A DNA stretch of 64,000 bases from assembly GCA_031549905.1 (NCBI GenBank), contig JAVBPC010000076.1:669-64668 (forward strand). The letters run 5' to 3'. Shown here piece by piece: positions 1 through 35,583 of this stretch. The translations under genes were made by a program, and so were the position numbers. Positions within the stretch are counted from its first letter, which is position 1. Every line of letters starts with the position of its first letter. The notes below the pieces were generated by a model. It ran no database searches. It saw only the letters and a program-made list of their open reading frames with translations, and was not told the origin of the DNA. The stretch is from Eubacteriales bacterium. GTDB lineage: Bacteria > Bacillota > Clostridia > Christensenellales > Aristaeellaceae.

Positions 1-8
1 AAACGCTA

Positions 9-989: not shown

Positions 990-1032
990 GGGTGGGTCTG
1001 GCATCAATAATTTTGTGCACGGGAGAAGTACA

Positions 1033-1298
1033 ATGCTTAGCGGAAAGTCTACTCTTATTACCGATGGAACTGGTTCCTTTGGCAACTGCCTTGTTGATTA
1101 TGTTTTTTCATTACGATCCAAAGAAGATCACCATTTATTGCGGAGCGAATACGAGCAGCTTCAAATGGAGAAGGGTCAAAAACAACAAGGACAAGCTGCG
1201 CTTTTTTTGGAGATGTGCAGGATGAAATGCGTTTGCGGTGAGTATCAAAGGATGTTGACTATATCGTGCCGCGGCGGCACCAAGGCATAAAGGAGAAA
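1033..1298 (+). pseudogene. CapD/FlaA1-like UDP-sugar 4,6-dehydratase N-terminal remnant, frameshifted and truncated
   Basis: RBS GGGAGAAG precedes ATG 1033. The N-terminus LITDGTGSFGNCLVDYV matches the Rossmann GxxGxxG start of CapD-like dehydratases. Homology continues in another frame (KLRFF / GDVQDEMRLR) across a T7 homopolymer at about 1204-1210. Only about 90 codons remain before tagF starts at 1304. Confidence 0.5.
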
Positions 1299-1303
1299 AG
1301 GCG

Positions 1304-2548: not shown

Positions 2549-2976
2549 TGATGACAGTCGGTTATACTGCGGGGGTGTTTGACTTGTTTCATATCGGCCA
2601 TCTGAACTTGCTGAAAAATGCAAAGGGCATGTGCGATAAGCTGGTGGTGGGCGTATCTACGGATGAGCTTGTTCAATACAAACACAAAGCACCCATTATA
2701 CCGTTTGCGGAGCGCGTGGAAATCATCCGCAGTATCAGGTATGTGGATGCCGTTGTTCCACAACGGGATATGGATAAAGTGGCCATGTGCAAAAAACTGC
2801 GCGCGAAGATTTTGTTTGTCGGCGATGACTGGTACGATAGCGAAAAATGGAAAGAATACGAAAAGGATTTAGGCGAGCACGAGATAAGTGTTGTGTATTT
2901 TCCGTACACGCAAGGAACGTCATCCACGCTTATAAATGATACCCTGATAAAAATGAGGAATTTTGAAAATGCATGA
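2545..2976 (+). CDS. tagD: Glycerol-3-phosphate cytidylyltransferase
   Basis: 143 aa. It has the N-terminal GxFDLFHxGH nucleotidyltransferase motif (YTAGVFDLFHIGHLNLL) and a TagD-like C-terminus (RYVDAVVPQ..., GDDW). Confidence 0.85.
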   Translation: MMMTVGYTAGVFDLFHIGHLNLLKNAKGMCDKLVVGVSTDELVQYKHKAPIIPFAERVEIIRSIRYVDAVVPQRDMDKVAMCKKLRAKILFVGDDWYDSEKWKEYEKDLGEHEISVVYFPYTQGTSSTLINDTLIKMRNFENA

Positions 2977-4318
2977 AATAGACTGTTTTGGTTTGCATTG
3001 CGCATACAAAGAGGAAAGTTCGGGCCTAAGGGCAAAAAACCTGTTTTCATTGGTTGCCGAAAATGGATTTGACGATTTTTCTGCGCATGGCATAGCGTCA
3101 TATTTTAGTTTCCGCCACCCCATTTTACAATATACAATGTTCAATGGAATCAGCAAATATGATGCGCAACCGGGCAGTCTGATTCCTTCGGAAGTTTGGA
3201 AACCCATTTTCAGCGATCATACCTTGGGAGAAAACCTATTTGAAAAAGCAATCATCGCCAAGGTAGAAGAGAAATTGTTGCGTGCAATTGAAAAGCTTGC
3301 CGGCAGCAAAAAACGCATAGGCGTTACGCTTAGCGGAGGCCTGGACAGTTCCCTCATTTTGAGCATGTTACGCTCTATGTATCCGGATGCGGAGATACTT
3401 ACATACAGCATCGGATTTTACGGTGATGATGAGTTTGAATATTCGAGAGACGCGGCAGCCCGATTTTCTACCCGGCACTGGGAAAAAGTGCTTACCGCGG
3501 AGGATTTCATTGGGAAAGATTCTATTATGAAGCCCCTGATCATGCGCAAGTGCGCACCCCTGCATCCAAATGAGATAGCGCTTGCGCTGGCCGAGCGGCA
3601 GGCCAAGAGAGACGCGTGTGATGTTGTTTTCTGCGGCGAAGGGGCAGATGACATATTCGGGGGGTATGGAAGAAACCTACGAATGTATTTACGATATCTT
3701 CCATCGCAAGATTACTGTGAATTTTTGCTTAGTCGCTACAGATATTTCAAACGAGATGATGTGGCCGGACTAATTCGGGATGAATATCTCCTTGATGATG
3801 CGCAACTTTTAAAAGGCATTTTTGAGGAGGCGGAATGCCCAGCTGACGCCCGAAATAGAATGCTCTATTTTATACAGAGAATCCATACGCGAGGCCTAAT
3901 CGAGAGAGGCATGAATGCACTAGGTTTTGCCGGCTGCGCGCCTGCTATCCCGTTTATCGAACCGGAAATGGTTGAATATGCGAACTCTTTGCCTTTTGAT
4001 TTGCATGTGAAATGGAAAGATGGCTTTAGTGATGCCCATTTCATGGGAATGGATCCCACAATTATCAGTGAAAAATACGACACGCCAAAGTATTTGCTGA
4101 AAAAAGTGGCGGAAGCATATTTGCCGCATCACATCATATATAGGCCCAAGCATGGCTTTCCCGTACCTTTTGAGCTTTGGATGCGTGACCTAAAGACGTT
4201 TGAGCTCAGCAATGCAATTTTTAAAACATCAGATATAAGCAGAATGACCGGATGGCAAAAATTTATGATAATAAACTTGGACTGCTTTATTAAGAGTTTT
4301 ATGCCATACCGGAAGTAG
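2963..4318 (+). CDS. Asparagine-synthetase-like (AsnB C-terminal synthetase domain, PP-loop ATP pyrophosphatase) amidotransferase; no N-terminal glutaminase domain
   Basis: PP-loop motif SGGLDSS (GVTLSGGLDSSLIL) with AsnB-like downstream blocks. It has no Cys2 Ntn glutaminase domain. The likely start is ATG 2969 (RBS TGAGGA); TTG 2963 is the ORF-track start. Confidence 0.65.
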   Translation: MKMHEIDCFGLHCAYKEESSGLRAKNLFSLVAENGFDDFSAHGIASYFSFRHPILQYTMFNGISKYDAQPGSLIPSEVWKPIFSDHTLGENLFEKAIIAKVEEKLLRAIEKLAGSKKRIGVTLSGGLDSSLILSMLRSMYPDAEILTYSIGFYGDDEFEYSRDAAARFSTRHWEKVLTAEDFIGKDSIMKPLIMRKCAPLHPNEIALALAERQAKRDACDVVFCGEGADDIFGGYGRNLRMYLRYLPSQDYCEFLLSRYRYFKRDDVAGLIRDEYLLDDAQLLKGIFEEAECPADARNRMLYFIQRIHTRGLIERGMNALGFAGCAPAIPFIEPEMVEYANSLPFDLHVKWKDGFSDAHFMGMDPTIISEKYDTPKYLLKKVAEAYLPHHIIYRPKHGFPVPFELWMRDLKTFELSNAIFKTSDISRMTGWQKFMIINLDCFIKSFMPYRK

Positions 4319-4355
4319 TCGCATGGTCAATCAGCGCTGAGAGGATGGATGAAAA

Positions 4356-5366
4356 ATGGGATACGCTGCCGTGGAAGACAGATACAGCAAGTTGCCGTAC
4401 AGACGCTGCGGAAAAAGCGGGCTGATGCTGCCGGCGATATCACTGGGGCTATGGCATAACTTTGGGGATATCACGCCCTTTGGCGTGCAGCAATCGCTGC
4501 TGCGCACGGCTTTTGATAACGGCATCACGCATTTTGATCTGGCAAACAACTATGGCCCGCCTTACGGCGAGGCGGAGCGCAACTTTGGCGTGCACATGCT
4601 GCGCGATTGGAAGCCCTACCGCGATGAGATGGTGATATCCACCAAAGCAGGTTACGACATGTGGAAGGGCCCCTACGGCGACCATGGCAGCCGGAAATAC
4701 CTAATCGCCAGCCTGAATCAGAGCCTCAAGCGCATGAACCTGGACTATGTGGATATCTTCTACCATCACCGGCCCGATCCTGAAACGCCAATCGAGGAAA
4801 CCATGGGCGCGCTTGCGCAGATACTCAGAAGTGGCAAGGCGCTGTATGTGGGCATCTCAAATTATCGCGCGGGGCAGGCCGAGCAGGCGATTCAGGCGCT
4901 GGGTGTTCTTGGAAGTCATTTGCTAATCCATCAGCCCAGCTATTCTCTGCTTAATCGCTGGATTGAGGAGCCGGCCGGGGATGCGGGCAGTCTGACGGAT
5001 GTGCTGCGCCGTGAGGGCGTGGGTTGCATTGCCTTTGCGCCACTGCAAAACGGGCTTTTGACTGGGCGCTATTTGGATGGTATCCCGGCCGATTCGCGCG
5101 CCGCGCATGATCCGCGCTACCTAAAGCCTGCATTGATCACCGAGGAGAAGCTCGGCATGGTGCGCAAGCTGAATGTGCTTGCCGGGCAACGTGGCCAAAA
5201 GCTTGCGCAAATGGCGCTGCAATGGGTGCTGCGCGATGAAGTGGTAACCTCGGCCTTGATCGGCGCAAGCAGGCCCGAGCAGATCATTGAGAATGTGGCG
5301 GCGCTCTCCGGTGCACCGTTTACCGCGGAAGAACTGGCGCGCATAGAGGAAGCGCTGCGGGGGTAG
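4356..5366 (+). CDS. gpr: Aldo-keto reductase, L-glyceraldehyde-3-phosphate reductase (YghZ/Gpr)-like
   Basis: 336 aa. There is strong block similarity to E. coli YghZ/Gpr (YRRCGKSGLMLPAISLGLWHNFG..., ITHFDLANNYGPP..., ISTKAGYDMW, GKALYVGISNY, LLIHQPSYSLLNRW, ALIGASRPEQ). RBS GAGAGGA. Confidence 0.75.
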   Translation: MGYAAVEDRYSKLPYRRCGKSGLMLPAISLGLWHNFGDITPFGVQQSLLRTAFDNGITHFDLANNYGPPYGEAERNFGVHMLRDWKPYRDEMVISTKAGYDMWKGPYGDHGSRKYLIASLNQSLKRMNLDYVDIFYHHRPDPETPIEETMGALAQILRSGKALYVGISNYRAGQAEQAIQALGVLGSHLLIHQPSYSLLNRWIEEPAGDAGSLTDVLRREGVGCIAFAPLQNGLLTGRYLDGIPADSRAAHDPRYLKPALITEEKLGMVRKLNVLAGQRGQKLAQMALQWVLRDEVVTSALIGASRPEQIIENVAALSGAPFTAEELARIEEALRG

Positions 5367-24004: not shown

Positions 24005-25135
24005 TTACTCGTTCCCTCCCTTGTTTGTTGTCGGAACATTGTTGGTTTGCGGCAACATGGTATCCCCAATGCCCTCGCTCGCTTCCGGGAAGTTGGCCAG
24101 CAGCGCGGCGCCAACGGAATCCATTTCCGCCAAGGTTTCCTGCATACGCTCATAAATGGCCATGAATGTATTCTTGCGCACGGGCTCATGGTCTTTATCT
24201 TCAAAGTAGTCATCAAGCGAAAGCGTCGATTCGGGTATCGAATCGGATGTTGACCATGTATCCGTGTTCAGCATCAGCGGCAGGCCGTCCTTATCCCCGA
24301 TGATGACCAGCTTGGCGTTGCTCGACTGCGCCAGCTCCAGCGTAGCCTGGATGCCGATAAACCGCAGGTACGCTTCCGTCATGCCCTCATTGACAAGGGC
24401 CTGCGAGAACCGGACGGACTCCGAATCAACATAGTTGCGCTTGTACTTTTCCACGGCTTCCAGCACCCGGTAGCGTTCCGCCAGAACGTTTTGCTCGGCG
24501 ACGAACTTATCGGATATGGCGCTGGACATTGCTTCGGGCAGTTCCACGCTGCGCACCAGGATGACGGTAAACTGGAACGGCGCGTCGGACAGCGTTTCAT
24601 TCAGAAGCTGCATAACCTCTTCCTGAAGCAACAGGGGATTGCCGTCGTACAGGCGGCTTTGCTCATACTGGCCGATGATGCTGCGCACAACGGATGTGAC
24701 GGCCGGGTCGATGACGTTGTTGGCATAATCCCCGCCCAGCGTGGTATGCAGCTCACCGACGCGGTCCCTTTTGATGCGCCAGATGACGGTCATCTCCACA
24801 TTGACGGCCAAACCGCCCTTGGCAAGCGCGGTTACGCTGTAATCCCTGGACTGCGACCTTGCGTCATAAGGGATGATCGCATCCCATGGGAAAACGAACC
24901 GCACACCCTCGTTGCAGTATACATTTTGCAATGTACCGCCAAAGAAACGGCTGAAATATACCCCGACATAGCCCGCCTCAACGGTTGTGGTGAAAAATGG
25001 CCAACACACCACCACCGCCAGTGCCAGGACAAGTACGATCACGAATAACCGTGGCTTGTCGGCGAACAGTGCGGCAAACCGCTTTTTCAGGGATTTTCTT
25101 TTTTTGGTTTTTGGCTGCTCAGGTTCATTTGTCAT
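24005..25135 (-). CDS. SPFH/band-7 (stomatin/prohibitin/HflK-C family) membrane protein
   Basis: 376 aa. A basic N-terminus is followed by a single TM (LFVIVLVLALAVVVCW) and then an SPFH-domain start (VEAGYVGVYFSRFFGG...). The C-terminal half is coiled-coil-rich. RBS GGAGAG. Confidence 0.7.
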   Translation of the reverse strand: MTNEPEQPKTKKRKSLKKRFAALFADKPRLFVIVLVLALAVVVCWPFFTTTVEAGYVGVYFSRFFGGTLQNVYCNEGVRFVFPWDAIIPYDARSQSRDYSVTALAKGGLAVNVEMTVIWRIKRDRVGELHTTLGGDYANNVIDPAVTSVVRSIIGQYEQSRLYDGNPLLLQEEVMQLLNETLSDAPFQFTVILVRSVELPEAMSSAISDKFVAEQNVLAERYRVLEAVEKYKRNYVDSESVRFSQALVNEGMTEAYLRFIGIQATLELAQSSNAKLVIIGDKDGLPLMLNTDTWSTSDSIPESTLSLDDYFEDKDHEPVRKNTFMAIYERMQETLAEMDSVGAALLANFPEASEGIGDTMLPQTNNVPTTNKGGNE

Positions 25136-25704
25136 ACGGTTGCGCTCTCCGGCTGTGCGGTTTTCTTCCGCTTAAGCATTTTGCCAATCCATTCGCGGCT
25201 GTTCAGATACGCCGCCTTGAAGCTGGCTTTCATGGCGTCAATGTTTGCGTTGACAAAGTCGCCGCCGTTGTTAAAGTGAGCGGCGAACATCCTGCCCACC
25301 GCGTTGGTGGAAAGGCCGTTCAGCGCGGGCAATGTGGCGAACGCCATAGAGGTGCCGATGAGCGGAATGCCCATCACCAGCAGTTCCACGGTTCCCGTTG
25401 CCAGCACGGGCAGTGCGCCGCCGGCTGCCGCGGCGATGATTTTTTTGGCGATATCTTCTTTAAATTCTACGCCATACAGCTTGGAAAGGTTGCGCACCAT
25501 GTTCAGCTGAATGGCTGTCACGGATGCCAGGCTGACCAGCGGCATCAGCGTGACGCCAATGCCCATGGAAGCATAAACGCTGGAAGTGATAATCTTTTCC
25601 ACCTTGGCCGCATCAACAGCCACGGTGCGCGCGCCGGTGTCACCCGAAGCGGTTTCGGCCTGCGCCTGCACGGCTTCGGCATCGAATTCGGTGCTCATGT
25701 TCAT
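25132..25704 (-). CDS. Hypothetical membrane-associated protein (possibly DUF697/YcjF-like)
   Basis: The start was chosen at MNMSTEF (RBS AGGAGG), not the ORF-track M. It has Gly/Ala-rich amphipathic segments. It is the first gene of the long minus-strand operon and overlaps the SPFH gene by 4 nt. Confidence 0.4.
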   Translation of the reverse strand: MNMSTEFDAEAVQAQAETASGDTGARTVAVDAAKVEKIITSSVYASMGIGVTLMPLVSLASVTAIQLNMVRNLSKLYGVEFKEDIAKKIIAAAAGGALPVLATGTVELLVMGIPLIGTSMAFATLPALNGLSTNAVGRMFAAHFNNGGDFVNANIDAMKASFKAAYLNSREWIGKMLKRKKTAQPESATV

Positions 25705-25896
25705 CCTCCTGGATTCTTTTGACTTTATATATTCTAATCTGTTTCTCATTTTTCATCATATCATAATCTTGTCGAAAAAGGAAGTATTATGGGTTACTTT
25801 GCAAGAAATATTTATATAGATTTTGTCACCGGAAAAGCGGTACGATTTTCGCATCACCAACAATTTTGCTTGCCATATGGCTTGCTTTTCATGTTT

Positions 25897-25936
25897 TTGA
25901 AAAAGCAAAAAAGAACCCGCACAAACGCGCGGGTTC
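25897..25936 (-). terminator. Rho-independent terminator ending the radical-SAM/small-ORF cassette
   Basis: On the minus strand, GAACCCGC-gcgtttgt-GCGGGTTC is followed by TTTTTTGCTTTTTC, 9 nt after the small-ORF stop. Confidence 0.7.
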
Positions 25937-25944
25937 ATCGCATG

Positions 25945-26130
25945 CTATACCAATGCCAGTTCCCTTTGTATCAGCGCGCAAGCGATGTTCAGCGCCTTGA
26001 TTCTGCGCACCAGCAGCGTATGCTGCGGCGTGCCCTCTTTCAGCTTTGGCTGCACCTTTTCGCATTTGCGTATCGTCGATTCTATGGCCCGCAGCGCCTC
26101 TTCCAGCTCTTCCCGCGTGAACGCGTCCAT
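25945..26130 (-). CDS. Small hypothetical protein (61 aa, helical, acidic N-half / basic C-half)
   Basis: The ORF starts 13 nt after the radical SAM stop. It is followed directly by a strong terminator, so it is co-transcribed with the rSAM gene. I recognise no motif. Confidence 0.45.
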   Translation of the reverse strand: MDAFTREELEEALRAIESTIRKCEKVQPKLKEGTPQHTLLVRRIKALNIACALIQRELALV

Positions 26131-26142
26131 GCCTGCGCCTCC

Positions 26143-27267
26143 CTATAGTACCAATTCGCCCGGCCGATAGCCCTTGGGCAGTTCCTCTTCGCAGAGGAAT
26201 TTAAAACGCTCATCGCGCAGGATCGGCAGGAAGGCCTCGTACGGCATCCTTACAAATTCGCACGCGTAATTGCTGGCCCCAAACCACGCGCCCTCTTTGC
26301 CGCGCAGGTTCAGCCCCCTGGCAAACTTGGTATGGTTCGAGCAGTCGTGCACGGCCGCATCCCACCGCTCGTCATCGGCGGTCTTCATAAACCGCAGCGT
26401 CAGTTCGCGGCTCCAGATCGGAGAAATGTAACCCAGCCGCGCGATGTACATGTTTTCGCCGGCATAGTTACCGATGTTGTTGGCGTTCAGGTGCAGTTCG
26501 GCGCAGTTGATGAAATCCAGGCCCGTGGAAAGAATCGCCTCTTTTTTCTCAAAAAACGCGCTGAAAAGCTCCGGCGTCATGGGCGTTTCGATGCCGACGC
26601 GCGGAATATACTTTTTCGCGGTGCCGATGTTCGCGATGACCCGGTCCGCGCACCCGGAAGCCCCAAGGTTGAACCGCAGTTCATCCAGGCCGGCGGTGCC
26701 CAGCGCCTTCAAATTCTCTTCGGTGGCCAAGGTGCCGTTCGTGTACAGGTGCTGATGAATCCCCGCATCATGGAATTTCCGTATTACCGGATAGTATTTT
26801 TCGATTTCCATGAACGGTTCCAGGTAGACATACGAAATGCCGGTGGGCTTGTTTTGCGCGGAAAGCAGCAGGTCAATATCCCTTTCATAGAACTTTGTGC
26901 CGCCAATTTCCCACATGCCTTCGCCGACCGGGGGTATGGCGTCCAGTTCGCCGTAATTATAGCAAAACTTGCAGTTTAGGTTGCATTTGTTCGTTTTGCG
27001 CACCGCGCTAAGGCCCGTCCCAAGCAGGCAGGATTTGCATCCGCCCGGGAATTTGCTTTCATTGCCCACAAAATAGGTGCGGTTCTGCAGCGTTTTCAGG
27101 TTGCCAATCTCAGACATCAGCTTATCGTTTCTATCATCGATGGCCGCCTCAATCTGCGCGAAGGTGGCGTAAACGATTTCCTGCTGATGCGTCAGTATTT
27201 CTTCATCCTCCGGCAGGGATGCGAAGAACTCAAACCATATCAGCGCGTCTTTCTTTGAAATTTTCAC
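26143..27267 (-). CDS. Radical SAM domain protein of unknown function
   Basis: CX3CX2C cluster CNLNCKFCYN about 115 aa from the start. GTG start at 27267 with RBS AGGAGGG 9 nt upstream; the track's longer M-start lacks an RBS. No obvious SPASM Cys-rich C-terminus. Confidence 0.7.
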   Translation of the reverse strand: MKISKKDALIWFEFFASLPEDEEILTHQQEIVYATFAQIEAAIDDRNDKLMSEIGNLKTLQNRTYFVGNESKFPGGCKSCLLGTGLSAVRKTNKCNLNCKFCYNYGELDAIPPVGEGMWEIGGTKFYERDIDLLLSAQNKPTGISYVYLEPFMEIEKYYPVIRKFHDAGIHQHLYTNGTLATEENLKALGTAGLDELRFNLGASGCADRVIANIGTAKKYIPRVGIETPMTPELFSAFFEKKEAILSTGLDFINCAELHLNANNIGNYAGENMYIARLGYISPIWSRELTLRFMKTADDERWDAAVHDCSNHTKFARGLNLRGKEGAWFGASNYACEFVRMPYEAFLPILRDERFKFLCEEELPKGYRPGELVL

Positions 27268-27324
27268 GGCGGTATTCCCTCCTGAACGGCAAGTATGCGC
27301 GGCATGGCGCTTTTGGGTGCATCC

Positions 27325-27354
27325 CATCATAGCGTGCCAAAGGATGCTTGTCAA
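27325..27354 (-). promoter_or_regulatory. Sigma70-type promoter for the radical SAM cassette
   Basis: On the minus strand TTGACA-N17-TATGAT, about 50 nt upstream of the GTG start. Confidence 0.5.
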
Positions 27355-27372
27355 TTTTGATATATTCCGCGT

Positions 27373-28374
27373 TTATTCCCCAGCGGTATCGGGTGCATTT
27401 TGCATGATATCCAGCTGCCGCAATATTCTCTCCTTCACCTGCGCGACGAACGCCGGCGGCTCCAGCGCCCTGACCGTTGGGCCAAAGCCCAGCACGCGGA
27501 TCAGCAGCTCGGTTTCCTCCATTACATCGTAATAGATGCGGCAAAGGTATGTGTTGCTTGCCTCATCATATTCCGTTTCCTTCCGGTAGGCCGCGAACTC
27601 CAGCATGGCGCGCTCCAGCGCGTTGCGCTCGGGGTAGATGCGCAGCAGGAAGGATGGCTGGGTTTGCGGCTGTTCGAAGTACCGCAGCGCCTGCGCAATA
27701 TCCATCGCGGGCGGGTTGTCAGCAACCTGCACATGCGTAATGCGGGATAGGTTCAGTATGGCGCGCCGGTTCCGGGTTTTGAAACAGGCTGTGGCCAGCA
27801 AACGGAACTTGTCATCCTTCGCGGAATAGTTCAGCCGCCACGGTATGTATGCGCCGTGCGTAAAGCCGCCCTTTCCGCCCGCGTACTCGATGTACAGCGG
27901 CGTATGCACCTCTGTCGCGTCAAGGATGACGCGGAACCGCTCGCGATACCGCGCGTCGTCATAGGGGTCGCCATCCGAAGCGGCATCGTAGATATGGAAG
28001 TCATCCGGGGAATACAGCGGCGCAGTATCCAACGCGCCGTCCAGGGCCTGTATCTGCGGGTCTGTGAGGAAAAGGCGCATGCGCGGGTCGGCAAGCAGCG
28101 CCTTGAGCCATGCCTGTTCCAGCGTGCTCATCGGGCGCGCGGTATCGCCGCAGGCAAGCGCGGAGTAATAGCGCCCGCCGCGCGTCTGAAGCAGCGGCCA
28201 TTCCTCCGAAATCAGCTTTGGCAGCAGATGGAACGCGGTATCCGCAAAGCCGCTGCCCTCGATGATGGATTCGATTTCCGCGCGTGTCAGGCCGCCGCGG
28301 TGCGCCCCCGCAAGCACGCGCGCCAGCACCGTGTAATAGCAGCCGTAAATCTCGGAAAAAAGCTCCATCCTCAT
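27373..28374 (-). CDS. WYL-domain protein (putative ligand-sensing transcriptional regulator), second of a tandem pair
   Basis: WYL-like core YIPWRLNYS...KFRLLATAC...RNRRAILNLSRITHVQV (P..L.Y / YL.A.C / R.F.L.RI pattern). Start at MRMELF (RBS GGAGGA). It overlaps the upstream paralog by ATGA. Confidence 0.55.
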   Translation of the reverse strand: MRMELFSEIYGCYYTVLARVLAGAHRGGLTRAEIESIIEGSGFADTAFHLLPKLISEEWPLLQTRGGRYYSALACGDTARPMSTLEQAWLKALLADPRMRLFLTDPQIQALDGALDTAPLYSPDDFHIYDAASDGDPYDDARYRERFRVILDATEVHTPLYIEYAGGKGGFTHGAYIPWRLNYSAKDDKFRLLATACFKTRNRRAILNLSRITHVQVADNPPAMDIAQALRYFEQPQTQPSFLLRIYPERNALERAMLEFAAYRKETEYDEASNTYLCRIYYDVMEETELLIRVLGFGPTVRALEPPAFVAQVKERILRQLDIMQNAPDTAGE

Positions 28375-29585
28375 TCCTCCAGGTACATGGCCGCCATGCG
28401 CGCAATATCGTTGCGGAAGCGGTTCACGACCTCTTCGCTGCTGCTTTCCAGCGACAGGATACGCCCGCAAAATGTCTTGATCCAGGGGGACATCTCGCAT
28501 ACATCGTAGGCTACTTTGGTGTAGCGCACGGTCTGTGCGTCCAGCCGCTCCACCGCACCGCCCCGCCCCTCGCGGATCAGGCGGTCCTGCACATACTGTT
28601 CCGTGCGCTCATCGATGCGCAGCGTCATGCACAGCGTATCGCCAAACCTGGCCCGGCTGAAACTGACGCCCCAAAGCTTGTCATAGCACCCGGCAAGCTT
28701 TTGCCGCAGCGCGGGCGCATCCGGGTAGGGCTCCAGCAATTTCACCGAAAAAGCGTAATCCAGCCGATAGCACGCAAAGCGCCTGCGTGCCGGGTGATAC
28801 GCGCAAACATACCGGCGGCCCGTGGCGGCACTGACGAAAATGCGAAGGGGCACCACGCAGGTTGCACCGGCGTGCCAGGCGCGGATGCTGCGGTTTTCAA
28901 AGGATACCGCGCGGTTTTCGCGGATGGCTTCAAGCATCGTCAGCAGCACCCCGCTTTCCAGTGTGTGCACGATGTAATGGTGCTTGTAGCAAAAAAGACT
29001 GTTGCTCCGCCCGGCGTTATCCAGCAGAAAGCTGCCAATTTCACCGAAGGGCGCCGCACCCTGGAAGAAAGATACGGCATCCCAAAGCGAATCGGAATCC
29101 GGCGCCATGGGGGATAGTGAGTACACCAGCGCCCTGCCCTGCTTTTCGGCGCGCAGCAGCCCCATGCGGACATACTCACTTAACTTGTTGCGCACGGTTT
29201 GAATGTCGAAAACCCGCCCGCCGCGCGCGCAGACCGCGTCACACAGCGGCTCCACCGCCGACGCGCTCTCCCGCAGGCAGTCCAGCAGCAGGAAGTGCAG
29301 CAGCACATCGTTGTCGGTGAAGCTCTTGGATTTCCACGCGCTGTACAGCGGGTTTTCCGATAACTCGGAAGCATCCAACGATACAAAAACGCGCTTGCCG
29401 CCGCTGCCGTACGTCCAGCGCATGGCGCTGCCCAGGTAGCTTTCAATGCGCCGCCGTTCGTTGTCGTATGTGCGGGCGGATTTTTGCCGGAAGTCGGTGC
29501 GCGATTTGAAGCCGTAAACATAGAAATCCCGCATGTACTCGCGGATCTTCTCAAAGCTGCGGGTCAGTTCCGAAAAGGCAGCCAT
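28371..29585 (-). CDS. WYL-domain protein (putative regulator), first of a tandem pair
   Basis: 404 aa. WYL-like core VPLRIFVSAATGRRYVCAYHPARRRFACYRLDYAFSV. It is divergent from rtcB with a 143-bp shared intergenic region. Confidence 0.55.
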   Translation of the reverse strand: MAAFSELTRSFEKIREYMRDFYVYGFKSRTDFRQKSARTYDNERRRIESYLGSAMRWTYGSGGKRVFVSLDASELSENPLYSAWKSKSFTDNDVLLHFLLLDCLRESASAVEPLCDAVCARGGRVFDIQTVRNKLSEYVRMGLLRAEKQGRALVYSLSPMAPDSDSLWDAVSFFQGAAPFGEIGSFLLDNAGRSNSLFCYKHHYIVHTLESGVLLTMLEAIRENRAVSFENRSIRAWHAGATCVVPLRIFVSAATGRRYVCAYHPARRRFACYRLDYAFSVKLLEPYPDAPALRQKLAGCYDKLWGVSFSRARFGDTLCMTLRIDERTEQYVQDRLIREGRGGAVERLDAQTVRYTKVAYDVCEMSPWIKTFCGRILSLESSSEEVVNRFRNDIARMAAMYLEE

Positions 29586-29728
29586 GTGCGCATCACTCCC
29601 CCAGCAAAAGTGTATCGCAGATGCCCAATATTTTCAAGTTCGCAAACTTTTTTAGAAGATAAACGCACCTGCGGCTGGTAAGATGTGCCCATCGAAAGCA
29701 AAGCGCAACGGAAATGGAGGGCGATACC

Positions 29729-30961
29729 ATGATCATCATCGAAAAAGCAGACCGGCAGGTACCCATCAAGGCATGGATTGACAGCGAAAACAGCGTAGAG
29801 GAAAGCTGCCTGGAGCAGGCGTACCACTTGGCGTCACTGCCCTTCATTCACAAATGGGTGGCGCTGATGCCCGATACCCACACCGGCATGGGCATCCCGA
29901 TTGGCGGCGTTATTGCCACCGACGGGGCCATCATTCCAAACGCCGTGGGCATGGATATCGGCTGCGGCATGGGGTTTATCGGCACGGACCTGCCTGTCGA
30001 GGTTTTAAAGGAAACGCAAACCGGCAGCGGCAGCCTGGTACAGACCATCGTGGGCGATCTGCTGCGCAGCATCCCCGTGGGCTTTTCCCACCACAAGAAA
30101 AGCCAGCCCTGCGGGACGCTGGACCGGGCGCGCGAAGAGATGGAGAAGTACGAAGCAAACCCGGAGCTGGTGGAGCAGATCGAAGCCGGTTACCGTCAGG
30201 TCGGTACGCTGGGCGGCGGCAACCATTTCATCGAACTGCAGGAGGATGACGAGGGTCTGCTGGGCATCATGGTGCATTCCGGCTCCCGCAACTTCGGCAA
30301 GCGCATCTGCGATACGTTCCATTTGGCCGCGCGCGAGCTAGCCGCCAAAATGGACGGCGCGGCGCCCGATGACTGGCGGATGGCGCATTTGCCGCTGGAT
30401 AGCGCGGCGGGACAGCAGTACATCCACTGGATAAACCTTGCGCTTGACTTTGCCGCCGAAAACCGCGCGCGGATGATGGCCGTGGCGCAGGAAGTGCTGG
30501 AGCGCACCGTCGCCAAATACACCGCGGCAACGTTTGGCTACACGCGGCACATCAACTGCCACCACAACTACGCCGCGCTGGAGCGCCACTACGGCAAGGA
30601 TGTGTGGGTGCACCGCAAGGGCGCAACCCGCGCGCTGGCTGGAGAGGCGGCGGTAATCCCCGGCGCGATGGGCTCGTACAGCTATGTGGTGGAGGGGCTT
30701 GGCAACCCGGAAAGCTTTTGCTCGTCATCCCACGGCGCGGGCCGCCGCTACGGCCGGAAAGCCGCGCTGGCGAAGTTTTCTGCCGAGCAGGTGATGGTCG
30801 ATCTTAAGGCGCAGGGCGTCATCCTTGCCAAGCACAACAAGGCCGATGTGGCCGAGGAAAGCCGCTTCGCTTACAAAGATATTGATGAAGTAATGGGGCA
30901 GCAGCGCGACCTGGTGCGGCCGGTCAAGCGGCTGAAAACCATCGGCGTTGTGAAAGGGTAA
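29729..30961 (+). CDS. rtcB: RNA 3'-phosphate/2',3'-cyclic-phosphate-5'-OH ligase RtcB
   Basis: RtcB hallmark blocks are present: MPDTHTGMGIPIGGV, GCGMG, GGGNHFIELQ, HSGSRNFG, NCHHNY, HRKGATRA and SSSHGAGR. The start was chosen at ATG 29729 (RBS GGAGGG). Confidence 0.9.
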   Translation: MIIIEKADRQVPIKAWIDSENSVEESCLEQAYHLASLPFIHKWVALMPDTHTGMGIPIGGVIATDGAIIPNAVGMDIGCGMGFIGTDLPVEVLKETQTGSGSLVQTIVGDLLRSIPVGFSHHKKSQPCGTLDRAREEMEKYEANPELVEQIEAGYRQVGTLGGGNHFIELQEDDEGLLGIMVHSGSRNFGKRICDTFHLAARELAAKMDGAAPDDWRMAHLPLDSAAGQQYIHWINLALDFAAENRARMMAVAQEVLERTVAKYTAATFGYTRHINCHHNYAALERHYGKDVWVHRKGATRALAGEAAVIPGAMGSYSYVVEGLGNPESFCSSSHGAGRRYGRKAALAKFSAEQVMVDLKAQGVILAKHNKADVAEESRFAYKDIDEVMGQQRDLVRPVKRLKTIGVVKG

Positions 30962-31004
30962 TTTTTTGATGATAAGGGCGGTTTCGCCTTTATGATACCA
31001 CCTG

Positions 31005-31282
31005 TTCTCCTATCCGCAGGGCTCATGATGCCCTCGGGGTGCCCAAGGGTTCCGTACGGCATGCCGGAGAAACGGGTCTTGATCGCGGTAAAACCCGCGG
31101 CGAAAACTGTGTATATGAGGGTTCAATTCCCTCCCCCGAAAGGGGTAGCGTAATGGCACGCACACAGCCAAATGGTTAAGCTCAGAGGAGCCGGGGTTCG
31201 AATCCCCATCCAACCTGAAAAGGTTGACACACACCCCTGGCCGGCATCCGGCGCAACAAAGAGGGCATGCCCTTTTTGAAGC
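31005..31282 (+). ncRNA. Putative structured small RNA with tRNA-like D-arm and T-arm modules (candidate Y-RNA-like/YrlA-like tRNA mimic), own promoter and terminator
   Basis: Promoter-like TTGATG-N18-TATGAT lies at 30968-31000. Two T-arm-like hairpins carry T-loop consensus (GAGGG-TTCAATT-CCCTC at 31117-31133; CGGGG-TTCGAAT-CCCC at 31192-31207). There is a D-arm-like GTAGCGTAATGGCACGC at 31146-31162. Several short hairpins are followed by the intrinsic terminator GGGCATGCCC-TTTTTG at 31262-31282. No plausible ORF lies on this strand, and no complete cloverleaf (no matching acceptor stem) could be drawn. Confidence 0.35.
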
Positions 31283-31456
31283 GCAGCATCCGGCCTGCCG
31301 GGCGACGGGGATACCGCCCGCGCAAGCGCAGCCCATGGCCTTTCCGCCGCCAACTGGGGGCGGAAGGCAACCGGCTGCGGGAGGCGCGCGCTGAACCGAA
31401 GCCCCGCAGCCAGGATGCGGATGCCGGTCCCAAAGGGACAAAAAGGAGAGAAGAAA

Positions 31457-32545
31457 ATGAAGGCAATGATTCGGGAGAATGAGCGCGGGTTCCTGTTCCG
31501 CAAGGGCCTGTTTGTGAAGATGCTGGAGCCGGGCGAGCACCGGATTCTTAAAATGCGCGAGGAAACATGCGTGAAGGTGGCGGCGGATGGGCCGGTAGCG
31601 ATGCCGGGAGTGGAAATTGCGACCCTGCTTGGCGATGCGCAGTTTGCAAAGTGCTGCGCCCGCGCGCAGGTGGGGGATAACCAGCTGGCGCTGCACTACG
31701 TTGACGGCCGCCTGAAAGAGGCCCTTGGCGCGGGCGACTACCTGTTCTGGAACATCTTTCGTCAGCACACCTTTGAGCTGAAAGACCTGCGTCAGCCGCA
31801 GGTAACCGGGCTGACCGCCGCGCAGATGCGGGCGATCGCACCTTCCTTCTATGCAAAGCTGGAGGTGGAAAACGGCGCGTGCAGCCTGCTGTATTACGAC
31901 GGCGTGTTCCAGAAGCGGCTGCCCCCGGGCAACTATTATTTCTGGAATGGCGGCGTGAAGGTGCAGGCAACGGGTTATGATCTGCGCATGCAGGCGCTGG
32001 AGCTGACCGGGCAGGAAATACTGACCGCCGACAAGGTGATGCTGCGCGTCAACTTCGCGTGCACCTACCAGATCACCGACCCGGAGGCGCTTGCGGAGCA
32101 GGTTAAGGATCACAAGTCGCTGCTGCACACCACGGTGCAACTGGCCCTGCGCGAGCAGATCGGCCGGCTCAGGCTGGATGAACTGCTGGCGCAAAAGGAA
32201 GGCGTTGGCGTGGCCGTGTTGGCCAAATTGCGCGAAAAGGAGCAGGCGCTGTGCGCAGCGTTTGGCGGCGCGGGCATCAAGGATATCATCCTGCCGGGCG
32301 AGATTCGCGACATCATGAACACGGTGCTGATCGCCGAAAAGCGCGCGCAGGCCAACGTCATCGCCAGGCGCGAGGAGGCAGCATCCACCCGCGACCTGCT
32401 GAACACCGCAAAGCTGATGGATGAAAACGGAACGCTGTACAAGCTGAAGGAAATGGAGTGCCTGGAGAGGATTTGCGACAAGGTTGGCAACATTTCCGTG
32501 GGCGGCGGGGCGCTGCTGGGCCAGCTGAAAGGGTTGCTGGTATAA
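31457..32545 (+). CDS. SPFH/band-7 domain protein (second paralog in window)
   Basis: Start at MKAMIRENERGFLF (RBS AAAGGAGAG). SPFH-like core followed by a long coiled-coil C-terminus. It is preceded by a 175-nt leader with two 9-bp GC hairpins. Confidence 0.65.
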   Translation: MKAMIRENERGFLFRKGLFVKMLEPGEHRILKMREETCVKVAADGPVAMPGVEIATLLGDAQFAKCCARAQVGDNQLALHYVDGRLKEALGAGDYLFWNIFRQHTFELKDLRQPQVTGLTAAQMRAIAPSFYAKLEVENGACSLLYYDGVFQKRLPPGNYYFWNGGVKVQATGYDLRMQALELTGQEILTADKVMLRVNFACTYQITDPEALAEQVKDHKSLLHTTVQLALREQIGRLRLDELLAQKEGVGVAVLAKLREKEQALCAAFGGAGIKDIILPGEIRDIMNTVLIAEKRAQANVIARREEAASTRDLLNTAKLMDENGTLYKLKEMECLERICDKVGNISVGGGALLGQLKGLLV

Positions 32546-32561
32546 TCGGCGCCATACAACA

Positions 32562-32595
32562 CAAACGCCAGACGGGCATGCCGACTGGCGTTTGT
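32562..32595. terminator. Hairpin between convergent SPFH and LRR genes (possible bidirectional terminator)
   Basis: CAAACGCCAG-N14-CTGGCGTTTG 10-bp stem. Flanking T-runs are weak. Confidence 0.35.
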
Positions 32596-32600
32596 CATGC

Positions 32601-34622
32601 CTATTCGCGATAATCGCTTACGATCTTCACATCCGGCAGATTTACCTTGAGCAGCGCGATCTCTTCAAGGGTCAGCGCATCGTTTTCCGACAGATCAACC
32701 CATTCAAGCGCGGTCAGCGCGTACAGCGGCGACAGGTCGGAAACCAGGCAATCCCGGAGGCTGAGGGTTTGCAGGTTCACCATGCCGGCAAGCGGGGTTA
32801 GGTCACTCACCTGCGCGTGATCCAGATAGAGCGTATCCAGCAGCGTCAGCTTCGCAATCGGCGTGATATCGGAAAGATCGAAGTTGTAGGAGGCATCCAG
32901 GCATGTGAGCGCCGTAAGTCCCGCGATCGGCGAAAGGGCGTCAATTTCGCAGTTGCGGATATCAAGGTAGGTCAGCCCCGTCAGCGCGGAAAACGGCTCA
33001 AGGCTTTCAAGGCATATATCGGCCACTTCCAGGTAGCGCAGCGCGGGCATTTCAAGCAGCGGCGAGAAGTCCCGCAGCCCTATATTGTTTGATACGCCCA
33101 GCGATTTCAGGCGCGGAAGGCCGGCAAGCGGCGTCAGGTCTGTCACATAATTGAGCCACAGGTCCAGCGACTCCAAGGTTACAAGGCCGGAAAGCGGTGT
33201 AAGGTCCGTGATATCGTTGTCGCTCAGATCAAGCCATGTAAGCGCCGTAAGCCCAGCAAGCGGCTCAATTCCTTCATCGCCTAGCATGCAGTACGCCAGG
33301 TCCAGTTCGTCAACGTTCAGCGGGACCGCCATGGTTTCATCCCCGATCTGGATCGATACCGTTTCGCTATCGACAAAACCGCCGGGCGTGCCTTCCCATT
33401 TTGCGCTGCCATCCAATGGCACGGTGGTAAACTGCTGTTCCCCCGTCCACCAATCGGTGACCGAGTAAAACACCGCCGCGCCTTCCCCGACGCCGTAGGA
33501 GCCCAGATACTCCGCGGGGCCGGCATCCAGCCTGTACAGCGGCGTGCCGTCATACGCGTGCAGCACAAGCTCCGCGCGCTCAAGATCATGCGGTTCAAAG
33601 GAGGCGTCGTGATACCACACGGCCAGCCCGTAGGGCGTGGCGAAATACAGGTCGGAATCGATGGAAAGCGGCGCGTGTCCGCCCTTTTCGGCATCAAATC
33701 CGTATAGCGCGCCGAACAGGATGCGCGGCCAATCCATATCCGAAAAGGGCAGCGTAAACCCGTCATCCAGGTTTTGGTAGACGATGTGCGGCCCCTGTGA
33801 AACCAGCCCGCGCACGCCGCATTCGGTCAGCTTTTCAAGGCCGGTGCCATCCAGGTTTACGCGGTAAAGCCTGGGGTACGAAAGATCAAGCATTTCGTTC
33901 TCATCGTCGCTCACGCAGCTTACAAAGGGTACATCGGCATAGGTTTTGACATCGTTCAGGTTCGCGAAATAGATCGCGCCGTCGTGGTATACAAACTCCG
34001 TTGCGGCGACGCCTTCTATTTCCTGTACGTCGCCGCCATCCATTTCGCAGGTGTACAGCGTGCCGGTCGGCCCGGAAAACAGCAGGCGGCCGCTGTCCGC
34101 CATGCGCAGGATCGGCCCCGCGTACGGCGCACGGTCCGCTGAAACGCGCGGCTCATCCGGCACGCCCAGCCACATGGTTTCCATATAGTCTTCCCCAAAG
34201 AAGCGCACGCCGACGTCTTCCTCTTCTCCCCCAAAGCCCGCGCCGCTGATCAGGTACGCCCAGTCATCGCCATCGACAATCAGGTAATAGGGGGGCGTGT
34301 CCTCGTAATCTTCCCACTCATTATCCCATACCGCGTTGTCATACCAGGACCATCCGGTAGCGCATTCGACGATCATCCAGGGGTCAAGCGGAGATACGCA
34401 CACCGCGCCGCGCCCGGTAAGCGCCAGCGAAGCGCCCAAAATATACGAGCTGGGGATGCCCTCCCCTTCCAGCGGCTGCCCCTCGCCAAGCCCTTGCGGG
34501 GTTTGCAGCCTGGAAATGCGCGGATTCCCCGCGGCGGGCGTTGCTTCCTGCGCAAAACCCTGGCAGGTGGCCAGCAGCAAAAAGGCGGCCAGGGCAATGC
34601 AAGTCATCTTTCTCAAACGCAC
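32601..34622 (-). CDS. Secreted leucine-rich-repeat (internalin-like) protein with N-terminal DUF5050-like domain
   Basis: GTG start at 34622 (RBS AAGGAGG) gives the signal peptide MRLRKMTCIALAAFLLLATCQGFAQEA. The C-terminal about 250 aa are 22-residue LRRs (LxxLxxLDLSxNxITDLTPLAGL...). The N-terminal domain is paralogous to 37514-38692. Confidence 0.7.
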   Translation of the reverse strand: MRLRKMTCIALAAFLLLATCQGFAQEATPAAGNPRISRLQTPQGLGEGQPLEGEGIPSSYILGASLALTGRGAVCVSPLDPWMIVECATGWSWYDNAVWDNEWEDYEDTPPYYLIVDGDDWAYLISGAGFGGEEEDVGVRFFGEDYMETMWLGVPDEPRVSADRAPYAGPILRMADSGRLLFSGPTGTLYTCEMDGGDVQEIEGVAATEFVYHDGAIYFANLNDVKTYADVPFVSCVSDDENEMLDLSYPRLYRVNLDGTGLEKLTECGVRGLVSQGPHIVYQNLDDGFTLPFSDMDWPRILFGALYGFDAEKGGHAPLSIDSDLYFATPYGLAVWYHDASFEPHDLERAELVLHAYDGTPLYRLDAGPAEYLGSYGVGEGAAVFYSVTDWWTGEQQFTTVPLDGSAKWEGTPGGFVDSETVSIQIGDETMAVPLNVDELDLAYCMLGDEGIEPLAGLTALTWLDLSDNDITDLTPLSGLVTLESLDLWLNYVTDLTPLAGLPRLKSLGVSNNIGLRDFSPLLEMPALRYLEVADICLESLEPFSALTGLTYLDIRNCEIDALSPIAGLTALTCLDASYNFDLSDITPIAKLTLLDTLYLDHAQVSDLTPLAGMVNLQTLSLRDCLVSDLSPLYALTALEWVDLSENDALTLEEIALLKVNLPDVKIVSDYRE

Positions 34623-34635
34623 TTGTGATCCTCCT

Positions 34636-35583
34636 TTACAGACCTGGGTCAGGCAGCGCTCTTTGCAGGGCATCAAACCCGGTGATTTCATACAGCCCCA
34701 TCCAGGCATCCAGCAGCATGCCATCCTGGAATTCAAAGCCCGAGATGACCGTGCCATCCGCCAATGTAAAATAGTAGTTCAGGTAGTCGTCGGTATGGCC
34801 GTTTTTCACGTTTTCTTCCAGTACGGAGATATTGCAAAGCGCGTCAAACACTGCCTGAATCGTCGCGGGGTCCGTGCTGGTGACGGGTTCTCCGCTCCCT
34901 TCGCCGTCATGGCGCACGGATACGGAAACCGGAAAGTTTGTTTTGATGTTATCGACAAACCATGAAACCGTCAGGTCATCAAGGAACCAGAACAGCGGCA
35001 CGCCCCCTTCCACGACAGAAAAGGTATACACCGCGTTGTATGAATCGCCCAGGTTGATCACCCGCGTGCCGGGAATGATGGGGTCCTCAAACATGCGGGC
35101 GCGAATGTTTTTCAGGGAGAAATCCTCCACCGTGCCGTCGCTGCGCACCGCGTATTCGCCGATCAGCCCGGAGAACCCGGCGTACGGTACATCCCCGTAG
35201 TTCAGCGCGTCGTCTATCGCGGAAAAGGAGACCACGCACGCCACATCTTTGTAGTAATCCTGCCAGATTCGGCGCTGCACGGCCCCCGCGTTCTTGGGCT
35301 CATCGCCGATCAGGTACACGGTGGTCTGCACAATTTGCAGGTAGCAAATGCGCGACAGGGGGCCCGCGTCAGGGTCATCCGGCCCGCGCGAACAGGCATC
35401 CAGCAGGCTTTGCAGCGCAAGGTCGGCATACTGGGTGACCAGCGCCCGGGCCTGCGCATCGAGGGTGTCAATCGCCTCGCCGAACGCGCCCGGCAGCACA
35501 TGCCCGGATTCAGCCGCCCGCGCCGGGGCGCACAGGGCAAGCGCCAGCGCGCAAAGAACCAAAAGGGGACTCGATTTTCTCAT
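34636..35583 (-). CDS. Secreted hypothetical protein
   Basis: Start at MRKSSPLLVLCALALALCAPARA (RBS AGGAGG), a signal peptide with AXA site. No motif recognised. Confidence 0.5.
   Translation of the reverse strand: MRKSSPLLVLCALALALCAPARAAESGHVLPGAFGEAIDTLDAQARALVTQYADLALQSLLDACSRGPDDPDAGPLSRICYLQIVQTTVYLIGDEPKNAGAVQRRIWQDYYKDVACVVSFSAIDDALNYGDVPYAGFSGLIGEYAVRSDGTVEDFSLKNIRARMFEDPIIPGTRVINLGDSYNAVYTFSVVEGGVPLFWFLDDLTVSWFVDNIKTNFPVSVSVRHDGEGSGEPVTSTDPATIQAVFDALCNISVLEENVKNGHTDDYLNYYFTLADGTVISGFEFQDGMLLDAWMGLYEITGFDALQRALPDPGL

Follow-up and report, generated by a model that had tools for sequence, protein, structure and literature searches.

A conserved tandem of WYL-domain proteins divergent from a clostridial rtcB RNA-repair operon, a probable functional counterpart of the RtcR activator

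The 64,000-nucleotide (nt) stretch of the Eubacteriales contig JAVBPC010000076.1 analyzed here (the window) carries two adjacent minus-strand genes for WYL-domain proteins, named wylA and wylB in this study, which diverge from a plus-strand operon made up of the RNA ligase gene rtcB, a structured non-coding RNA, and a gene for a Band-7/SPFH protein. RtcB operons are widespread, and their control is understood solely for the proteobacterial CARF/sigma-54 activator RtcR; the WYL pair described here is probably the clostridial functional counterpart of that activator. The nearest relatives of the locus belong to uncultured Bacillota/Eubacteriales metagenome-assembled genomes, with 78 to 79% protein identity. 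The genes and protein domains of the module are as follows:

27373-28368, minus strand: wylB, 331 amino acids (aa), comprising a winged helix, a helical linker, a WYL domain, and a WCX domain
28380-28376, minus strand: ribosome-binding site of wylB, GGAGG, 7 nt ahead of its ATG
28371-29585, minus strand: wylA, a 404-aa regulator, from its open reading frame (ORF), Pfam and PADLOC WYL profiles, and AlphaFold (AF2) fold
28373-28371, minus strand: stop codon of wylA, 2 nt before the wylB start
29316-29585, minus strand: WYL-A residues 1-90, family-specific basic N-terminal domain
29115-29315, minus strand: WYL-A residues 91-157, winged helix in the AF2 model
28728-28949, minus strand: WYL-A residues 213-286, WYL domain
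28383-28640, minus strand: WYL-A residues 316-401, WCX domain, a confident alpha/beta domain in the AF2 model
29729-30961, plus strand: rtcB, 410 aa, 3'-phosphate/5'-OH RNA ligase; the longest ORF runs from 29714
29717-29721, plus strand: ribosome-binding site of rtcB, GGAGG
30962-31456, plus strand: structured non-coding RNA, 495 nt, with no convincing ORF
31457-32545, plus strand: Band-7/SPFH gene, 362 aa, last gene of the operon; the longest ORF runs from 31415

The original prediction that both minus-strand genes encode WYL-domain proteins is borne out by Pfam and PADLOC profiles, by matches among homologues, and by predicted folds. WYL-A matches the Pfam WYL family over residues 213 to 276 (E value of 4.9e-6, over the gathering score) and the PADLOC WYL profile over residues 207 to 398, a span that takes in the WYL and C-terminal domains (5e-11), and the Pfam WYL match recurs in 69 of its 78 homologues. 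The sequence of WYL-B on its own yields a single sub-threshold Pfam match, to WCX at 1e-3, together with a PADLOC WYL match at 1.2e-10; among its 77 homologues, Pfam WYL is found in 33 and WCX in 39. The two genes had been described as overlapping, but the 130-nt overlap is an artefact of taking the longest ORF: the family-conserved WYL-B N-terminus MELFSEIYG corresponds to ATG 28368, a database protein with 100% identity is 331 aa long, and this start leaves a 2-nt gap between the genes.

Family-profile searches of PDB sequences gave marginal matches, and folds were therefore compared with Foldseek against the PDB, using AF2 models built from 77 to 78 homologues. The WYL-B model (predicted local distance difference test [pLDDT] of 90; its residue numbers start at ATG 28374, 2 residues ahead of the preferred start of the 331-aa protein) consists of a winged helix at residues 1 to 71, a helical linker, a WYL barrel at about 160 to 217, and a WCX-like domain at 241 to 326. 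The WYL-A model has a pLDDT of >80 from about residue 100 on and is of low confidence over residues 1 to 90. For both proteins, the significant matches that span the full length are to WYL regulators only: WYL-A retrieves DriD (1e-10), PafC/PafB in an RNA-polymerase complex (6e-10), BrxR (1e-7), CapW, and WYL1, with MecI and ArsR-type winged helix-turn-helix (wHTH) proteins as further structural matches, and WYL-B retrieves PafC (7e-12), DriD (6e-11), PafB, CapW, and BrxR. Helix-helix-helix-hairpin units at residues 91 to 157 of WYL-A and 1 to 71 of WYL-B are covered by the full-length alignments to DriD, PafBC, and BrxR. Both genes thus encode full-length wHTH-WYL-WCX regulators, the winged helices being those of the predicted folds. 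No helix-turn-helix match above the Pfam threshold was obtained for either protein (0.014 at best, PaaX-like). The earlier remark that the N-termini are not of a classic type left the DNA-binding mode unclear; at the level of predicted fold this is resolved, with winged-helix domains predicted in both N-termini. The invariant residues include G256, R257, R258, R274, and D276 of WYL-A (404-aa numbering) and F190, R191, and R211 of WYL-B (counted from ATG 28374, i.e., 2 higher than in the 331-aa protein).

In WYL-A, residues 1 to 90 are basic and more strongly conserved than any other part of the protein (49 of 90 positions are at least 90% conserved among homologues), and an exhaustive HMMER search found this domain confined to the N-terminus of WYL-A-type proteins. 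Comparison of the two families with hhalign showed them to be alignable over the WYL region only (E value of 2e-3); judging by this divergence, they are old paralogues, too far apart to be redundant copies.

Several observations suggest that the two proteins act as one factor. We examined 80 species-level loci, the closest of at least 547 related loci in a collection holding one genome per species, and a WYL-A homologue followed by an adjacent WYL-B homologue on the same strand was present in all 80. Further, when the 150 best proteins with the WYL-A N-terminal domain in the representative library are considered, 7 that begin with this domain span 728 to 855 aa (P0251, P0289, P0301, P0307, P0355, P0368, and P0385). 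The three of these that were tested (P0251, P0301, and P0368) all proved to be A::B fusions, with a full-length B as the second half (34 to 42% identity to the window WYL-B) and differing linkers, a parallel to the naturally fused PafBC of Arthrobacter (6sj9). Because of this constant adjacency and the natural fusions, the notion of a PafBC-like heterodimer, already raised in the original prediction, gains support, and WYL-A and WYL-B likely form such a heterodimer.

The linkage of the pair to RNA repair is similarly recurrent. A divergent rtcB adjoins the pair in about 53 of the 76 loci informative for this adjacency, and the conserved WYL-WYL-rtcB synteny across Clostridia that had been put forward as a check was indeed found. 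Cultivable carriers include Enterocloster, Anaerocolumna, and Eisenbergiella tayi. The neighbor of wylA is a full-length divergent rtcB in 52 loci, 37 of which have a Band-7 gene downstream, and an rtcB cut by the contig end in 1 locus (L018). In 9 loci a Band-7 gene lies directly beside wylA, with no complete rtcB (2 of these keep rtcB remnants), and in 8 loci its neighbor is a protein of ~490 aa with DUF2828 and DUF7788/vWA domains. One locus (L049) is rearranged, 3 are too short to judge, and 5 to 6 have no repair gene nearby. Most of the loci with a Band-7 or DUF2828-vWA gene in place of rtcB also have the tRNA-mimic RNA. Because rtcB, the Band-7 gene, and the DUF2828-vWA gene swap in the same slot, the WYL pair is tied to RNA-repair cassettes of exchangeable composition, and this says more about its function than proximity to any one gene would. 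Only 2 relatives were found among 2.9 million viral contigs; the module is essentially chromosomal.

The window RtcB matches the Pfam family over its full length (1.2e-107) and the RtcB structures of P. horikoshii and T. thermophilus in the PDB (1e-42), and its translation contains the ligase-typical motifs DIGCG, GGGNHF, HSGSR, and SSSHGAGR, which we take to be those of the active site. Its start is most likely ATG 29729, rather than 29714. The last protein of the operon has a Pfam Band_7 match of 8e-22. The last part of the interval given in the original prediction, 30962-31282, is not rtcB; it belongs to the structured RNA, whose elements are the following:

30974-30991, plus strand: 5' hairpin
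31001-31076, plus strand: three-way-junction domain
31107-31167, plus strand: permuted YrlA-type tRNA mimic, closing stem CTGTG/CACAG
31117-31133, plus strand: T arm of the mimic
31134-31145, plus strand: GAAA-capped acceptor-like hairpin of the mimic
31148-31161, plus strand: D arm of the mimic
31193-31207, plus strand: second T arm
31210-31227, plus strand: capped hairpin after the second T arm
31309-31316, plus strand: conserved 3' block GGATACCG
31332-31368, plus strand: conserved 3' block CCCATGG with hairpin
31402-31423, plus strand: conserved 3' block CCCCGCAG...ATGCGG

Spacers between rtcB and the Band-7 gene range from 332 to 1,057 nt, and all 37 contain 1 to 4 T-arm motifs (GGTTCRANTCC). 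The order of elements in the mimic is closing-stem strand, variable region, T arm, short capped hairpin, UA, D arm, and closing-stem strand. In an alignment of 28 sequences, pairing was retained in 90% of cells versus 64% in shuffles and 40 to 47% in slid controls, and 141 cells showed double changes compared with 51 in shuffles; in a fold of the whole spacer (5' domain plus tRNA-like arms), 33 of the 55 pairs predicted have compensatory changes, and the spacer is conserved beyond the mimic as well. A covariance model of the mimic gave one match in the window (31103-31171, E value of 1e-16) and matched 52 of the 80 loci, including Band-7-only and DUF2828 loci. ARAGORN called no tRNA in 27000-33000, and Rfam 15 returned nothing credible even when the 521-nt spacer was searched alone, with no family at an E value of 10 apart from chance-level matches. 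This uncatalogued RNA of ~0.5 kb with tRNA-mimic modules travels with Band-7 or DUF2828-vWA proteins. It is very probably the "band 7-associated tRNA" predicted by Burroughs and Aravind (2016), here forming part of a much larger RNA; a later paper (bioRxiv 10.1101/312249) states that the predicted RNA lacked experimental validation.

The arrangement of the mimic resembles that of bacterial YrlA (PMC4201824), with a variable region, a T arm, a closed acceptor-like stem-loop, and a D arm, in this order, inside an enclosing stem at the anticodon-stem position. It differs from YrlA in being embedded in a much larger RNA and in having no Rsr/Ro60 gene at its locus. No match to the Y RNA families in Rfam was found even at E values of ≤10, and inspection of the window RNA revealed no Ro-binding motif GNCGAAN0-1G.

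The 143-nt region between rtcB and wylA contains a highly conserved element and two predicted promoters:

29639-29660, plus strand: 22-bp box TTCGCAAACTTTTTTAGAAGAT, candidate WYL-A/B operator, at about -52 to -31 of the rtcB promoter
29676-29691, plus strand: rtcB promoter core, with TG at 29676-29677, -10 hexamer TAAGAT at 29679-29684, and predicted start A at 29691
29609-29637, minus strand: candidate wylAB promoter TTGAAA-17-TACACT, from a consensus scan only, its -35 abutting the box

The family consensus of the box is TTCGCAAnyTTTTTTAwATGAT, with near 2 bits at ~18 positions; it is non-palindromic and differs from the RecA-NDp motif of PafBC. It has a single match within the window, where 0 are expected by chance, and lies upstream of wylA, facing away from it, in 70 of the 80 loci, those without rtcB included. 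A TAnnnT hexamer, mostly preceded by TG, follows exactly 18 nt downstream of the box in 70 of 77 distinct sites, and an A stands 7 nt past this hexamer in 96% of the 70 sites, so that conservation falls on T(-12), A(-11), and T(-7) of the -10 element and on A(+1). The rtcB promoter has no consensus -35; that slot is taken by the 3' end of the box (AAGATA in the window; ATGATn in the family, a 3/6 match to TTGACA). Tandem boxes 41 nt apart occur in 5 loci. The box is likely the operator of WYL-A/B, to which the two proteins would bind together, and its non-palindromic sequence suits a heterodimer because it is no inverted repeat. At the wylAB side, the junction between the -35 of the candidate promoter and the box, ATTTTCAAG followed by TTCGCA, is kept in the closest relatives (L001 to L004), and in other lineages the box is ~10 nt from the wylA start; because this distance differs between lineages, autoregulation of wylAB, if any, would not be uniform across them.

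Two other readings of this region were considered and set aside. A scan of position pairs across the 70 sites for a covarying hairpin over the -10 picked out no helix, just the conserved T(-12) and A(+1), and a sigma-54 promoter in the TGG...GC ahead of rtcB was dismissed on inspection, given the wrong spacing and an unconserved GC. Neither the sigma-54 activator signature GAFTGA nor a bacterial enhancer-binding protein Walker motif was found in any frame of the window. With WYL proteins in the divergent position and no sigma-54 activator signature within the window, the proposal that a WYL pair takes the place of RtcR at this locus is supported.

The box and the RNA also mark loci that carry other cassettes. 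The slot for the DUF2828 plus DUF7788/vWA protein was located in L035 (5951-7432) and in L038, L042, L053, L056, L061, L065, L074, and L078, all on the minus strand in locus coordinates; in L078, DUF2828 stands in the place of Band-7, downstream of rtcB. At least 5 of the DUF2828 loci share the 22-bp box and the tRNA-mimic RNA. In 4 DUF2828 loci the gene is followed by a paralogue of RtcB that is 27% identical to the window protein, and 3 of these 4 also carry an array of tRNA genes. The distant paralogue lies at 4286-5713 in L042, 2784-4526 in L053, and 2895-4454 in L056, and the ARAGORN-called tRNA genes ahead of it are those for Phe in L042, for Met, His, and Phe in L053, and for these plus Gln in L056. 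In L042 and L053 a second box stands ahead of the tRNA array and paralogue, and its presence together with a -10 element of its own suggests a small regulon. A Ro60/TROVE-like role of the DUF2828-vWA protein is suspected, which neither a PDB sequence search nor NCBIfam confirmed. Remnants of rtcB, 53 to 61 aa long, lie beside wylA in L011 (7694-7883) and L026 (7646-7828), where the tRNA-mimic RNA and Band-7 gene are intact; the RNA/Band-7 pair thus persists without an adjacent ligase.

PafBC (9fnd, 7p5x, and 6sj9) and DriD (Caulobacter; 8tp8 and 9pfv) are the closest points of comparison for the regulator. PafBC, an activator of the actinobacterial DNA-damage response, like the pair described here, consists of tandem paralogous wHTH-WYL-WCX genes that are fused in some species, gives full-length structural matches with PafC as the best hit of WYL-B, and has an asymmetric operator, a candidate one in the present case, beside the -10 of a promoter without a normal -35. 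The differences are substantial: PDB profile matches are at E values of 0.089 (PafB) and 1.8 (PafC), structural alignments have 15 to 16% identity, WYL-A has 90 additional residues as an N-terminal domain, the pair is clostridial and unlinked to pafA/Pup-proteasome genes, unlike actinobacterial PafBC, and its predicted target is an RNA-repair operon whereas PafBC controls DNA-repair genes. DriD, the best match of WYL-A, is a ligand-dependent WYL activator for which structures of RNA polymerase complexes at target promoters exist; by PDB titles it is a single species in crystals with single-stranded DNA as its ligand, unlike the two distinct subunits and likely RNA-damage context here. Sequence similarity does not extend beyond the WYL core, and the pair is thus no orthologue of PafBC or DriD, although by analogy it may work alike. 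BrxR and CapW, WYL repressors of BREX and CBASS, share the same three domains and gave full-length fold matches of 1e-5 to 1e-7. Both act as homodimers on inverted repeats and control phage-defense operons, in contrast to the heteromeric pair and asymmetric box of the present module, where PADLOC names no defense protein among the four operon proteins tested.

At the level of the operon, RtcR-RtcBA of Proteobacteria offers the same layout of a ligand-sensing regulator divergent from an rtcB operon, but RtcR is a CARF plus AAA+ sigma-54 activator, and the WYL pair faces a sigma-70-type promoter. The operon also lacks RtcA and Rsr and has a Band-7 protein instead; a scan of eight ORFs around the locus gave no RtcA-family match. 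In Salmonella, the rsr-yrlBA-rtcBA operon includes tRNA-mimic Y RNAs, and damaged RNA induces RNA repair (PMC7790460). A closer likeness is the RtcB/Band-7/b7a-tRNA system predicted in 2016, with RtcB beside a Band-7 protein and a tRNA-like RNA, for which exchange with Ro60/Y-RNA-type partners is noted in the summary given in bioRxiv 10.1101/312249. In the present family, however, the RNA is no plain look-alike of a tRNA: it is conserved, structured, and ~0.5 kb long, has a permuted YrlA-type core, and is called by neither ARAGORN nor the Rfam tRNA model. On the strength of that summary, the operon corresponds to the predicted RtcB/Band-7/tRNA-like system and not to RtcR-RtcBA.

Taken together, these features lead us to a working model to which we would give an even chance, in which a PafBC-like A/B heterodimer acts on the box and activates the rtcB operon upon a nucleic-acid damage signal. 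WYL-A and WYL-B would together occupy the 22-bp asymmetric box, which covers about -52 to -31 in a target promoter with an extended -10 and no consensus -35, and a damage signal received on the WYL domains would switch on transcription of rtcB, the tRNA-mimic RNA, and the Band-7 gene. The most plausible signal would be single-stranded RNA fragments, e.g., cleaved tRNA with 2',3'-cyclic phosphate ends; RtcB would then seal the cleaved RNA ends, with the RNA and Band-7 protein as presumed cofactor and scaffold. The domain architecture, the constant pairing with natural fusions, the linkage to interchangeable cassettes, and the phased box are shown directly, and the binding of A/B to the box, the activating effect, and the nature of the ligand are inferred. 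Activation is favored because the phasing is strict, tandem boxes occur, and activators are the closest structural relatives; the geometry fits a class-II-type or PafBC/DriD-type activator, but it would also fit a repressor that occludes the -35 region. Several points weigh against the model. The box covers the -35 slot, the TG-extended -10 present at many sites could fire without an activator, and a repressor working by occlusion would account for the data nearly as well; the survey covers the 80 closest of at least 547 related loci, and in 5 to 6 informative ones neither box nor repair gene stands beside the pair. The ligand of PafBC is single-stranded DNA. The same ligand is given for the structural relatives DriD and CapW in PDB entry titles, and among WYL relatives an RNA ligand is known only for WYL1.

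Repression is possible, if somewhat unlikely in our assessment: the same heterodimer on the same operator would act as a BrxR/CapW-type repressor on the -35 region until released by its ligand. The position of the -35 within the box, the TG-extended -10 at most sites (such elements can work without a -35), the proximity of the box to the wylA start codon in several lineages (within ~10 nt, as for autorepression), the significant full-length structural matches to BrxR and CapW, and the description of defense-system WYL factors as repressors (PMC11888443) all speak for it, whereas the activators DriD and PafBC match better than BrxR and CapW by 3 to 5 orders of magnitude in E value, and the invariant 18-nt phasing and the tandem boxes of 5 loci are more typical of activator-polymerase contacts. 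The operators of BrxR and CapW are inverted repeats, unlike the operator here. It is also improbable, in our view, that A and B are separate in function, one a DNA-binding regulator and the other a WYL1-like RNA-binding accessory of an RtcB/RNA/Band-7 particle. The structural matches include WYL1 (6oaw), a modulator of Cas13d that binds single-stranded RNA, the two families are very diverged, and WYL-A bears an extra, highly conserved basic domain; both proteins nevertheless keep the complete winged-helix, WYL, and WCX architecture, the fusions and unbroken adjacency point to a single complex, and an asymmetric operator fits two different DNA-binding domains. An incidental proximity to rtcB, with the pair controlling something else, such as a defense system or a downstream radical SAM gene, we regard as highly improbable. 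WYL factors often stand beside defense systems, and in the window a radical SAM gene follows wylB by 18 nt on the same strand, but this gene, the DUF697 gene, and the other SPFH gene of the window are missing from all 80 related loci, where rtcB, Band-7, DUF2828, and the tRNA-mimic RNA recur; the PADLOC result and the scarcity of relatives in viral contigs argue against a defense role.

An extension of the activator model is more speculative, and we consider it unlikely to hold in full. The pair would be an RNA-sensing, sigma-70-dependent RtcR counterpart with a new, highly conserved basic N-terminal domain, and the multi-tRNA-mimic RNA of the operon itself (~0.5 kb) would be a sentinel, a decoy that tRNA-cleaving toxins attack. 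Fragments of this RNA would induce RtcB through the WYL domains, and the intact RNA with Band-7 (or DUF2828-vWA) would form a repair particle. If true, this would represent a new signaling logic for WYL factors and a new class of large structured RNA absent from Rfam.

The general idea of a link between WYL factors and RNA repair is already published and is not new: Iyer, Burroughs, and Aravind (2022; PMC9503650) state that CARF/WYL transcription factors may sense cyclic-phosphate RNAs and that some regulate RNA repair, and another passage of the same paper cites Burroughs and Aravind (2016) for WYL-domain transcription factors. The earlier statement that the architecture is not characterized experimentally agrees with our literature searches (WYL with RtcB or RNA repair, PafBC with RtcB, and DUF2828), which found no experimental study of the pair, but the concept itself was in print. 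Relative to the literature that could be verified, the new elements are the evidence for a heteromeric pair with natural fusions, the WYL-A N-terminal domain, the conserved asymmetric candidate operator with its fixed promoter phasing, the exchange of RtcB, Band-7, and DUF2828 cassettes under one regulator, and the extended RNA structure. A large group of gut and environmental Clostridia probably solves the control of rtcB with a heteromeric WYL factor. The module lends itself to examining if damaged RNA, instead of single-stranded DNA, can be a ligand that WYL domains sense, and it supplies two proteins, a 22-bp candidate operator, a predicted transcription start, and fusion proteins suited to structural work.

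Other features of the window are described briefly. The radical SAM gene (26143-27354, minus strand), 18 nt past wylB, may be co-transcribed with the pair but is probably unrelated to the module, since none of the 80 related loci carries it. A second SPFH/Band-7 gene (24005-25135, minus strand) overlaps a DUF697 gene (25132-25749) by 4 nt, and neither is conserved with the module. A weak Rfam Leu_leader match at 25909-25992 on the minus strand (21.7 bits, E value of 0.78) is in reality a G+C-rich hairpin with a run of U, probably an intrinsic terminator in the first place, which lies immediately 3' of a 61-aa ORF (25945-26130) and overlaps its last codons. On the other side of the operon, a 718-aa ORF (32601-34757, minus strand) meets the end of the Band-7 gene in convergent orientation, and the C-terminal half of its translation reads as tandem leucine-rich repeats (LTxLxxLDLSxN...). 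Finally, positions 1-5000 of the window have a G+C content of 0.45, compared with ~0.60 elsewhere, and a strongly positive GC skew, and may be foreign or mobile DNA.

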